Shown here piece after piece: positions 20,121-23,100 of a stretch of 37,730 nt of DNA. Position 1 is the first letter of the stretch; each line of letters starts with the position of its first letter. A program made the position numbers and the translations under genes. This DNA is from Escherichia coli (GTDB lineage: Bacteria; Pseudomonadota; Gammaproteobacteria; Enterobacterales; Enterobacteriaceae): the NCBI RefSeq assembly GCF_003334785.1, contig NZ_QOWV01000026.1; one strand, written 5' to 3'. The notes beneath the pieces were generated by a model. The model searched no databases and had not been told where the DNA came from. It was given only the letters and a program-made list of their open reading frames with translations.

Positions 20121-23100
20121 TTACGCCTTCTCGATGTTGACTAAGAACGCTTTATATTCCGGCGTTTGCGAGTTTGCATCACCGACATTCGGCGTCAGAG
20201 TGTTAGCGATATAACCTTTACGCGCGACACCCTCAAAGCCCCAGTGGATTGGAATACCCACCGTTTCAACCTGCTGACCATTTACATTCAGCGGTTTCAG
20301 ACGACGCGTTACCACAGCCACCGCGCGGATAAAGCCACGCTTGCTGGAGACAGTGACACGATCGCCATTATTAATGCCTTTCGCCGCCGCCAGCGTTTCG
20401 CTGATTTCCACAAACTGTTCCGGCTGAGCAATTGCGTTGAGCAATGCGTGCTTGGTCCAGGTGTGGAAGTGCTCGGTCAGACGATAGGTCGTACCCACAT
20501 ACGGGAACTGCTCTTTTTTACCCATCCGCAGCGCGTCTTGTTCATACAGACGAACAACCGGGTTAGACACCACGTTCGGATGCAGCGGGTTAGTGCCCAG
20601 CGGCGTTTCAATCGGCTCGTAGTGTTCCGGGAACGGACCTTCCGCCATTTTGTTGATGGCAAACAGGCGTCCCATCCCTTCCGGCTGCATGATAAACGGC
20701 CCGGTTGGCGTACCCGGTGCGGCATTGCCGAAGTCAGGAATATCGTTACCCGTCCACTTGCTGCCGTTCCACTGGATCAGCATCCGTTTCGGATCCCACG
20801 GTTTACCGTTGATATCCGCCGAAGCACGGTTGTACAGCACGCGACGGTTGAGCGGCCACGCCCAGGCCCATCCCAGCGTATTCCCCAGACCGGACGGGTC
20901 GGAGTTATCGCGGTTAGCCATCTGGTTGCCCTGCTCTGTCCAGCTACCGGTGTAGATCCAGCAAGAAGATGCGGTTGTACCGTCATCACGCAGATGCGCA
21001 AAGCTACTCAGCAACTGACCTTTCTTCGCAATAAGCACGCCATTAGCGTCATAGAGATCTTCCAGCGCGTAGCCGTTGTTCTCTTTAGCCACTTCGTCAG
21101 ATTGCGGTTCGTGCGGCTGCTTGTAGTTCCAGCTCATCTTCATCAGCGGTTCTACGCCTTTACCACCTTCGGACTGGTACAGCTCGCGCAGATGATGGTA
21201 GATACCCGCCAGAATTTCACCGTCGTTACGCGCTTCGCCCGGCGCGTCCTGACCTTTCCAGTGCCACTGCAACCAGCGACCGGAGTTAGCGATAGAACCA
21301 TCTTCTTCAGCAAAGCAGGTCGAAGGCAGACGGAATACTTCAGTCTGAATAGACGCCGGATCGACATCGTTCGACTCACCGTGGTTCTGCCAGAAGGTAG
21401 AGGTTTCAGTCACCAGCGGATCGATAACCACCATGTACTTCAGCTTGCTCAGGCAGCTCACCACTTTGTTTTTGTCCGGGAAGGACGCAACCGGGTTAAA
21501 GCCCTGGCAGAAATAACCGGTGACTTTGCCTTCATCCATCATGTTGAAATACTTGATGACGTCGTAGGTCTGGTCCCACTTCGGCAGCCAGTCATAGCCC
21601 CAGTTGTTCTCTTTCTGCGCGGCATCGCCATAGAAAGATTTCATCAGGCTAACGAAGAACTTCGGATAGTTGCTCCAGTAGTTCACCTGATCAGCCAGCG
21701 TCGCTTTCGGCGTGTTCGCTTCCAGATACGACTGCAAATCAACCTGTTTTTCTGACGGCAGCGTCAGATAACCTGGCAGGCTGGTAGAGAGCAGGCCTAA
21801 GTCAGTCAAGCCCTGAATGTTGGAGTGACCACGCAATGCGTTCACGCCGCCACCGGCCATACCCATGTTACCGAGCAGCAACTGGATCATCGCCATAGTA
21901 CGGATGTTCTGCGCACCCACAGTGTGCTGCGTCCAGCCCAGCGCGTACAGGAAGGTGGTTGTGCGATCCGGTGCGCTGGTGGAGGCCAGCACTTCACACA
22001 CTTTCAGGAAGTCGGCTTTTGGCGTACCGCAGATGTTTTCAACGACGTCCGGCGTGTAGCGGGAAACGTGCTCTTTCAGCAGGTTCCACACACAGCGCGG
22101 ATGAGTCAGTGTTTCATCGCGTTTCGCATAGCCGTTTTCATCGAACTGATAGTTCCAGGACGATTTATCGTATTGACGTTTTTCAGCGTCGTAGCCGCTG
22201 AACAGACCGTCTTCGAAAGCAAAATCATCACGCACCAGCAGGCTGGCGTTGGTGTAATGCTTAACGTATTCGGCGTTGATTTTGTTGTTTTCGATCAGGT
22301 AGCGCAAAACGCCAGACAGGAACGTAATGTCCGTACCGGAACGAATAGGCGCGTAAATATCCGCCACAGAAGCGGTACGCGTAAAACGGGGATCGACAAC
22401 GATCAAGGTTGCGTCGTTGTTGTTTTTCGCTTCCATCGCCCAGCGGAAACCGACGGGATGCGCTTCAGCAGCGTTACCGCCCATCACCATCACGACGTTA
22501 GCGTTTTTGATATCCACCCAGTGGTTGGTCATCGCACCGCGACCAAATGTTGGAGCAAGACTTGCTACCGTTGGTCCGTGTCAGACGCGCGCCTGGTTGT
22601 CTACCGCCAGCATCCCGAGGGAGCGGGCAAATTTCTGGGTCAGCATCCCGGTTTCGTTGCTGGCACCGGAGGCACACAGCATACCGGTAGAAAGCCAACG
22701 GTTTACCGTTACGCCCTGCTCGTTCTTTTCAATAAAGTTAGCGTCACGGTCAGCTTTCATCAGCTTCGCAATACGGGAGAATGCTTCTTCCCAGCTAATG
22801 CGCTGCCATTTGTCAGAACCTGGCGCACGATATTCCGGGTAGCGCAGACGGTTTTCACTGTTGACGTAATCCAGCAAACCGGCCCCTTTCGGGCACAGCG
22901 CACCACGGCTTACCGGATGATCCGGGTCACCTTCAATGTGATAAATCGCTTCTCTGGCGTTTTTTGCGCCATCACCCAGGCTATACATCAATAGCCCGCA
23001 ACCTACGGAACAGTATGTGCAGGTGTTACGGATCTCTTTAGCGCGTAATAATTTGTAGTTTCGCGCCTGAGCCAGTGCTTGCTTCGGGGCAAAGCCCAAT

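Follow-up and report, generated by a model that had tools for sequence, protein, structure and literature searches.

The selenocysteine residue (Sec) at position 196 of Escherichia coli FdnG and the SECIS element associated with its codon are already known and constitute a textbook case of recoding. FdnG Sec196, its SECIS and the structure of formate dehydrogenase-N (Fdh-N) have reportedly been known for decades, the work being credited to Berg et al. 1991 and Jormakka et al. 2002 (PDB 1KQF), and the site analyzed here brings nothing new for biology. (Of note, the recoding site of FdnG is already covered by Rfam, NCBIfam and RefSeq.) Bacterial SECIS elements lie within the open reading frame, directly 3' of the in-frame UGA (PMC4605307, PMC10778597), and have a conserved G in their loop about 20 nt past this codon (PMC4605307). 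The experimentally dissected prototype is the SECIS of fdhF, which forms an Rfam family of its own (SECIS_2, RF01988) apart from SECIS_3; a review (PMC8659212) defines it by an apical stem-loop that starts 11 nt past the UGA and has a bulged U17 as well as G23 and U24 in its loop. For FdnG itself, mass spectrometry of E. coli MC4100 detected V-U196-HGPTVASLAPTFGR as a peptide, Cys was never seen at position 196, and in a selC mutant translation was found to end at UGA196 (PMC3636253); the same paper mentions the Tat signal peptide of FdnG.

The stretch of DNA that we analyzed, hereafter called the window, spans 37.7 kb of the E. coli chromosome, is 99.9% identical to strain M217 and is collinear with the annotated loci of M217 and K-12, in which fdnGHI is found at the yddG-adhP locus (table 1). 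On the basis of its sequence context, the gene under study is fdnG and not fdoG, because it lies in the syntenic order yddG-fdnGHI-yddM-adhP. The annotated fdnG of many E. coli genomes shows 100% DNA identity to the window gene, and each of the best 12 matches has fdnG annotated under the whole match. The product is recognized by the TIGR01553 profile with 1625 bits (cutoff 814), the alignment running over profile positions 1-1009 of 1009 in a single stretch across the UGA. The K-12 gene (b1474) differs from that of the window by 1 nt in 3048, C1024T, leading to the allelic change L342F; this sole difference is distant from the recoding site, and the UGA, the 59-nt SECIS and the gene neighbourhood are identical in the two strains.

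Table 1. Coordinates in the window of fdnG, its recoding signals and the adjacent genes of the operon
Feature	Position	Strand	Description	Evidence
fdnG	20121..23168	(-)	catalytic alpha subunit of formate dehydrogenase-N; 1015-codon frame including UGA196	translation
fdnH	19224..20108	(-)	Fe-S beta subunit, next in operon	TIGR01582, 482 bits (cutoff 335); annotated in syntenic locus
fdnI	18578..19231	(-)	cytochrome b gamma subunit	NF007558, 487 bits (cutoff 339); annotated in syntenic locus
Tat (twin-arginine) signal region of FdnG	23070..23168	(-)	putative; N-terminal	motif S-R-R-Q-F-F-K seen in translation
In-frame UGA	22581..22583	(-)	codon 196, selenocysteine codon; sole internal stop	aligned with fdoG, fdhF and 1KQF
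SECIS_3 (RF01989)	22528..22586	(-)	full match, model 1-59 of 59	Rfam, 84.3 bits against a gathering threshold of 63, E = 8.4e-19
SECIS hairpin	22538..22580	(-)	comprises lower and apical helices; encodes HGPTVASLAPTFGR	MFE fold, Rfam consensus structure, RNAalifold
Apical stem-loop	22552..22569	(-)	GGUAGCAAGUCUUGCUCC; nt 15-32, the U of UGA being nt 1	read from sequence
fdnG/fdoG perfect-identity run	22516..22586	(-)	71 nt, starting 3 nt ahead of the UGA	longest run; next longest 36 nt

Read in one frame on the minus strand, positions 20121-23168 comprise 1015 codons, of which codon 196 is the sole internal stop, and a terminal TAA. A mechanical list of ORFs breaks this frame into a product of 195 aa (22581..23168), which terminates at the TGA, and another of 803 aa (20121..22532), which begins at the first ATG past it, the codon count across the split being 195 + 1 + 16 + 803 = 1015. 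The claim of the sequence-only reading that a single TGA separates two ORFs of the same frame is therefore correct. Chain A of PDB 1KQF aligns with the read-through product over residues 1-1015, with L342F as the single substitution and a non-standard residue (X) at position 196, as would be expected for Sec. The TGA/Sec of FdoG and FdhF falls in the same alignment column, within the context ARV-U-HGP, and other orthologues among the matches listed have at this position either TGA or a Cys codon (TGT or TGC). Protein alignment, which had been proposed as a check, thus agrees with a selenocysteine recoding site instead of a pseudogene break, as do the SECIS_3 match and X196 of 1KQF.

The SECIS_3 match is the only one that Rfam gives in the whole window, and the same model matches K-12 fdnG and fdoG with equal score, whereas fdhF matches the sister model SECIS_2. 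The hairpin formed by the 43 nt past the UGA starts at the very next nucleotide, consistent with the proposal of a SECIS-like structure directly 3' of the stop codon; this proposal gains from a covariance model score well above threshold and from the presence of the features defined for fdhF, and the suggested comparison with the fdhF and fdoG elements likewise places fdnG and fdoG in SECIS_3 and fdhF in SECIS_2. The interval 22538-22583, originally assigned to the recoding site, does correspond to the UGA plus the hairpin, because the paired part of SECIS_3 covers exactly 22580-22538. The element is laid out as UGA-CACGGACCAAC-GG-U-AGCAA-GUC-UUGCU-CC; its apical stem-loop, which by analogy would be the part binding SelB, starts 11 nt past the UGA as in the fdhF definition, with U17 (22567) bulged and with G23 (22561) and U24 (22560) in the loop. 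The motif GCNCGNGTNTGHCAYGGNCC has one occurrence against 0 expected, and when the same peptide is re-encoded with synonymous codons, no more than about 0.5% of the variants retain all seven apical pairs as well as U17, G23 and U24.

The thermodynamic stability of the hairpin is not above chance when compared with dinucleotide shuffles (z = -0.77 for 59 nt and z = -1.37 for 46 nt), and 29-66% of synonymous re-encodings are at least equally stable, indicating that its energy is ordinary for the encoded peptide. Since stability fails to separate the hairpin from chance, it was dropped as evidence; the identification of the fdnG hairpin as a SECIS rests on geometry, conservation and covariation, not on energy. 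In the lower helix, about 85% of the cells are paired whether the Rfam register or that of the E. coli MFE fold is applied. With the former, A8-C48 and A12-G44 do not pair in the E. coli sequence, and the latter is shifted and includes a bulge at G47; neither of them displays convincing two-sided covariation for this helix in the 51 FdnG-like sequences obtained among the matches listed.

The situation of the apical helix was evaluated with the same set, consisting of 51 distinct Sec-type FdnG-like sequences among the matches listed. The covariation count was restricted to FdnG-like sequences, because fdhF belongs to SECIS_2; the Desulfovibrio-like outliers (L043 and L098) misfit the apical helix of SECIS_3, yet were kept in the covariation alignment. 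Within these 51 sequences, 96.9% of the apical helix is paired and four of its seven pairs show compensatory changes; U17 and U24 never vary, and the conservation of G23 is at least 90%. The resulting covariation score of 0.225 exceeds those of 500 out of 500 shuffles and of every slid register, and RNAalifold recovers the same apical helix de novo from the 51 orthologues. When all 78 FdnG-like Sec loci from diverse bacteria among the matches listed are considered, the mean number of apical pairs is 6.86 of 7. By contrast, the FdnG-like orthologues with a Cys codon, a small control of four among the matches listed, have a mean of 3.5 of 7 apical pairs and positive helix energy. These orthologues, which derive from Snodgrassella alvi (L019), Vogesella (L042 and L067) and Orbaceae (L064), have TGT or TGC in place of TGA and share the protein context C-HGP[TS]V...GRGAMT, flanked on either side by long open frames; their apical helix is unformed (2-5 of 7 pairs, with positive energy), and they therefore lack the recoding element.

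According to the mechanism that we propose for the window gene, the mRNA downstream of UGA196 would form the SECIS hairpin as the ribosome nears this codon, and the apical stem-loop, with its bulged U17 and loop residues G23 and U24, would be bound by the C-terminal winged-helix domains of SelB, by analogy with work on fdhF. SelB would carry GTP and Sec-tRNA(Sec), the selC product with anticodon UCA, and the complex tethered in this way would reach the A site and outcompete release factor 2, leading to the insertion of Sec that is described in the literature. The ribosome would then unwind the hairpin while translating it as HGPTVASLAPTFGR, and the product would be the Tat-exported FdnG of 1015 residues, in which Sec196, again according to the literature, would ligate the molybdenum cofactor in the active site. 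Of 5426 complete E. coli genomes, all have selAB and 5425 have selC, among them strains with identical fdnG; the sel genes lie outside the window and we therefore infer their presence in the source genome from the species.

Other explanations of the in-frame TGA have to be weighed against selenocysteine decoding. The TGA could be a nonsense mutation that has turned fdnG into a disrupted pseudogene, as the mechanical splitting of the gene and the 195-aa and 803-aa products recorded from many assemblies would suggest; the probability of this explanation is close to nil, however, given that the 81 nt around the site, TGA included, occur in each of 5426 complete E. coli genomes (for 5368 of 5434 records, the identity of the best place is at least 99%), and that the TGA recurs in the paralogs fdoG and fdhF and in 87 loci with formate dehydrogenase context (78 FdnG-like and 9 FdhF-like) across bacterial phyla among the matches listed. 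Moreover, the 819 codons downstream are intact, 1 nt away from K-12, and the solved structure is a single chain of 1015 residues. The latter result also bears on the idea that ribosomes terminate at UGA196 and start again from the ATG at 22532, with the resulting polypeptides of 195 and 803 aa assembling into the enzyme. Such an ATG does exist in frame, 16 codons past the stop, but the intervening codons (HGPTVASLAPTFGRGA) specify residues that are conserved throughout the orthologues among the matches listed and are present in the 1KQF chain, the ATG itself is the Met codon in the conserved GAMTN motif, mass spectrometry has revealed a peptide across the UGA (PMC3636253) and published work has detected only the full-length FdnG of 110 kDa, so that termination followed by restart appears next to impossible.

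Two further explanations question the role of the RNA structure. Termination is weak at a UGA that precedes C, and a near-cognate tRNA for Trp or Cys might read this leaky codon without SECIS or SelB, the hairpin being incidental; that its stability does not rise above chance would fit this explanation. It is nevertheless very improbable, considering that the apical helix has compensatory changes, that the helix disappears precisely in the loci with TGT or TGC among the matches listed, that so few synonymous encodings (about 0.5%) give the observed geometry, and that Cys never appears at position 196 and the selC mutant terminates there (PMC3636253). Alternatively, the hairpin might be a by-product of the conserved peptide, devoid of function at the RNA level, since many of its paired positions are codon positions 1 or 2 of conserved residues and its MFE is ordinary for the peptide encoded. 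Against this, third positions co-vary across the helix, A18-U30 and A21-U27 being replaced by G-C, C-G and U-G variants, the Cys orthologues among the matches listed form no helix with nearly the same peptide (TVSALAATFGRG), and synonymous sites are frozen over the 71 nt that fdnG shares with fdoG; we consider a mere by-product exceedingly improbable. Decoding by selenocysteine is the reading that we retain, and it is practically certain that an intact E. coli fdnG has TGA 22581-22583 on the minus strand as its codon 196 and that this codon is decoded in this way.

The expectation that automated annotation would truncate fdnG holds only in part. RefSeq reports one intact CDS of 3048 nt in both M217 and K-12, contrary to what had been anticipated, but split fragments do occur in public protein sets, where the exact 195-aa and 803-aa products each come from at least 1000 contigs. 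(One 195-aa fragment in these sets bears an unrelated name.) The practical value of the site resides in annotation quality, as scans that treat TGA as a stop yield two ORFs and the split products are publicly widespread. It also offers a clean positive control for a detector of recoding sites, for which hairpin free energy is a poor criterion; good criteria are the geometry (11-nt spacer, U17, G23/U24), covariation and the difference from Cys orthologues.

A close relative of the fdnG element is that of fdoG, which encodes the paralogous enzyme Fdh-O at a separate locus. The two genes have an overall DNA identity of 74.9%, yet their SECIS elements obtain the same SECIS_3 score of 84.3 bits and the longest run of perfect identity between them is that around the UGA (table 1). 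Such a 71-nt identity in paralogs that are approximately 75% identical indicates that synonymous sites are frozen here; alternatively, the identity might stem from gene conversion between the two genes and not from selection. The element of fdhF resembles that of fdnG in the ARV-U-HGP column, in the 11-nt spacer (CACGGNCCANC), in the GG/CC closing of the apical element, in the bulged U17 and in the equal distance of G23 and U24 from the UGA. It differs in having an upper stem of 4 bp and a 4-nt loop, GGUC, with 17 nt in all, as compared with the 5-bp upper stem and 3-nt loop, GUC, of fdnG, for a total of 18 nt; the 3' halves and the lower helices are different as well. A single structure for all Sec formate dehydrogenase genes was rejected, as elements of the fdhF type have only 2-3 of 7 apical pairs in the SECIS_3 register. 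The fdnG/fdoG and fdhF types of SECIS remain separate, and each of them is frozen in E. coli. From these sequence comparisons one might speculate that a difference in SelB affinity or decoding efficiency produces a selenium hierarchy between Fdh-N/O and Fdh-H, an idea that we regard as rather unlikely. If it were true, the two types of SECIS would rank the respiratory enzymes (Fdh-N/O) against the fermentative one (Fdh-H) for scarce selenium.

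The in-frame UGA of E. coli fdnG is a selenocysteine recoding site, a textbook case that was already known. Its original demonstration is reportedly that of Berg et al. in 1991 (J Biol Chem), and the structure described by Jormakka et al. in 2002 (Science, PDB 1KQF) is said to place Sec196 on molybdenum; in the 1990s the Böck laboratory reportedly studied the binding of SelB to the fdnG element. Translation of 20121-23168(-) gives a single frame of 1015 codons that ends in TAA and is interrupted once, by a stop at codon 196. This bears out the sequence-only reading that the 195-aa and 803-aa pieces share one frame split by a single TGA; the longer piece starts at the first ATG, 16 codons past the TGA, hence 195 + 1 + 16 + 803 = 1015.

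The read-through protein aligns with residues 1-1015 of 1KQF chain A (E. coli formate dehydrogenase-N), which carries a non-standard residue at 196, and matches the full length of the NCBIfam profile TIGR01553 (formate dehydrogenase-N subunit alpha) without interruption (1625 bits vs a cutoff of 814). The two ORFs after fdnG match beta and gamma subunit models, and the gene order yddG-fdnG-fdnH-fdnI-yddM-adhP is that of K-12, which identifies the gene as fdnG and not its paralog fdoG. Many E. coli genomes have an annotated fdnG that matches the 3048-nt frame at 100% identity, and 5426/5426 complete genomes of the species carry the frame; a single difference separates it from K-12 fdnG and the 1KQF sequence, a coding-strand C-to-T change at window position 22145 (fdnG nt 1024) that gives Leu342Phe. 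Exactly this L342F allele is common to several sequenced strains. Two further ORFs of the mechanical list, of 529 aa (20166-21755(+)) and 389 aa (21825-22994(+)), lie antisense to fdnG, are unannotated in syntenic genomes; most likely they are shadow ORFs of the coding strand.

Features of the fdnG recoding site and its cysteine-codon counterparts (L handles denote comparison loci)
Feature	Position	Strand	Source or detail
195-aa ORF	22581..23168	minus	mechanical ORF list
803-aa ORF	20121..22532	minus	mechanical ORF list
Internal stop of fdnG, codon 196	22581-22583	minus	TGA
Cys-codon (TGT or TGC for TGA) FdnG-like orthologues	L019:4356-4375, L042:4521-4540, L064:1011-1030, L067:1336-1355		Snodgrassella alvi, Vogesella (two species), Orbaceae bacterium

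The window is collinear with strain M217, the nearest genome, with 99.9% identity over 37.6 kb. Both narZ (27922-31719(+)) and the leucine-rich-repeat gene yddK (24855-25811(+)) are open in the window and annotated as pseudogenes in M217, where narZ has an internal stop and yddK is frameshifted; positions 28423 and 31105, both in narZ, differ between the two sequences, and a 1-nt indel separates them at 25459. The window also shows a 17-nt deletion relative to M217 at ~13645, in the short convergent osmC/ddpF intergenic region.

From the internal stop, the minus strand reads UGA CACGGACCAAC GG U AGCAA GUC UUGCU CC AACAUUUGGUCGCG, and RNA folding yields a hairpin spanning 22580-22538(-); the interval 22538-22583 previously proposed as the recoding site is exactly the UGA plus this hairpin. 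When the entire window was scanned on both strands with all 4227 Rfam families at gathering thresholds, the sole match was SECIS_3 (RF01989), the fdnG/fdoG type, at 22528-22586(-), covering the full model with 84.3 bits vs a threshold of 63 (E = 8.4e-19). Counting from the U of UGA, the apical pairs join G15 and G16 with C32 and C31, and A18 to A22 with U30 to U26; U17 (22567) is bulged and the loop is G23-U24-C25, with G23 at 22561 and U24 at 22560. Experiments on fdhF, summarised in PMC8659212 (citing Liu et al. 1998), place the upper stem-loop at a distance of 11 nt from the UGA, with U17 bulged out and the apical loop holding G23 and U24; U17 and G23 make contact with SelB. A conserved loop G lies ~20 nt downstream of the UGA (PMC4605307). 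The 11-nt spacer, U17, G23 and U24 of fdnG are thus all in canonical places. The suspected SECIS-like stem-loop is thus present: the UGA is followed at once by a hairpin that fits the curated model and has its key positions where the definition of a bacterial SECIS puts them.

Folding energy was unremarkable against dinucleotide shuffles (z = -0.77 for 59 nt, z = -1.37 for 46 nt). In a protein-preserving null, with random synonymous codons for the same peptide, the share of encodings with equal or greater stability ranged from 29% with uniform codons to 66% with codon-usage weighting, whereas all seven apical pairs together with U17, G23 and U24 were kept in only ~0.5%. What defines the element is therefore its geometry and not its stability.

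A DNA-pattern scan for A-R-V-[TGA/TGT/TGC]-H-G-P in one genome per species returned at least 120 loci; among the matches listed, 100 lie in a formate-dehydrogenase protein context (101 with the window itself). The FdnG-like TGA set among these matches comprises 78 sequences (the window and 77 loci; 51 distinct 59-mers) from Proteobacteria, Acidobacteria, Actinomycetota and others, with a mean of 6.86/7 apical pairs, in contrast to 3.5/7 and a positive helix energy in the four Cys-codon orthologues listed, which encode almost the same peptide and may serve as natural Sec-to-Cys (or Cys-to-Sec) controls. In the alignment of the 51 distinct sequences among the matches listed (A1), pairing in the apical helix reaches 96.9%, two-sided changes occur at four of its seven pairs (e.g. 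21/33 from A-U to G-C or C-G, and 24/30 from A-U to C-G), and its covariation score of 0.225 is higher than that of 500/500 shuffles and of any slid register; no sequence departs from U17 or U24, and at least 90% have G23. RNAalifold, with no structure supplied, yields the same apical helix. The lower helix has ~85% of cells paired in the Rfam and E. coli MFE registers alike, with no convincing two-sided covariation. The fdnG hairpin is conserved at the RNA level, and is absent where the codon is Cys. Within E. coli, 5368/5434 records have a best match at least 99% identical to the 81 nt around the site. Two Desulfovibrio-like FdnG-type TGA genes (comparison loci L043:4171-4190 and L098, oriented position 758) have a different downstream sequence, GGUACCGGCUCUGGCAGAGUCG, misfit the SECIS_3 apical helix (2-3/7 pairs) and presumably use another SECIS geometry.

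It could be argued that fdnG is a pseudogene, or a split gene re-initiating at ATG 22532, that its UGA is passed by SECIS-independent near-cognate read-through, or that the hairpin is a by-product of coding. Several independent results speak against each of these explanations, which even jointly appear very improbable to us: the universal conservation of the UGA, the covariation of the hairpin and its contrast with Cys orthologues, the single-chain structure and the detection of a UGA-spanning peptide. The latter, V-U196-HGPTVASLAPTFGR, was identified by mass spectrometry of purified Fdh-N/O, in which Cys at 196 was never found, and in a selC mutant translation of fdnG and fdoG ends at UGA196 (PMC3636253). 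The recoding UGA noted earlier is confirmed, and its interpretation as a selenocysteine site is supported. Complete E. coli genomes carry selA-selB in 5426/5426 cases and selC (tRNA-Sec) in 5425/5426.

The warning that automated annotation would truncate the gene does not hold for RefSeq, in which fdnG is one intact CDS and no pseudogene, so good pipelines do not truncate it; it does hold for stop-codon-naive gene callers, since exact-sequence look-up in public protein collections found the 195-aa (22584-23168(-)) and 803-aa (20124-22532(-)) fragments, with at least 1000 contigs for each. Split selenoprotein calls are thus common outside RefSeq, and the site offers both a reminder of them and a positive control for recoding-site detection. 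One member of the 195-aa cluster, EFN8991448.1, carries the name 'sulfate ABC transporter substrate-binding protein'.

Alignment with FdoG and FdhF, the check proposed with the sequence-only reading, places the TGA of both K-12 genes in the same column, within ARV-U-HGP. The SECIS of fdoG is identical to that of fdnG, with the same Rfam match, and fdhF matches the sister family SECIS_2. E. coli fdnG and fdoG share 74.9% DNA identity; their longest identical run, 71 nt at 22516-22586(-), starts 3 nt ahead of the UGA and takes in the SECIS (next longest, 36 nt), reflecting either synonymous sites frozen by the RNA element or gene conversion. Beside K-12 fdhF, between gltP and yjcO, lie five tandem Rfam naRNA4 (REP-type repeat) matches (L002:1912-2432(+), the fdhF locus), unrelated to the window. 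By analogy with fdhF, the C-terminal winged-helix domains of SelB, in complex with GTP and Sec-tRNA(Sec), would bind the apical loop and bulged U, and the tRNA, competing with RF2, would thereby reach the UGA in the A site; the hairpin would then be melted and translated by the ribosome. The resulting Sec196 would be the molybdenum ligand of nitrate-inducible formate dehydrogenase, in its Tat-exported catalytic subunit. The fdnG and fdhF elements differ in that fdnG has one extra base pair and a 3-nt loop, whereas the loop of fdhF has 4 nt.
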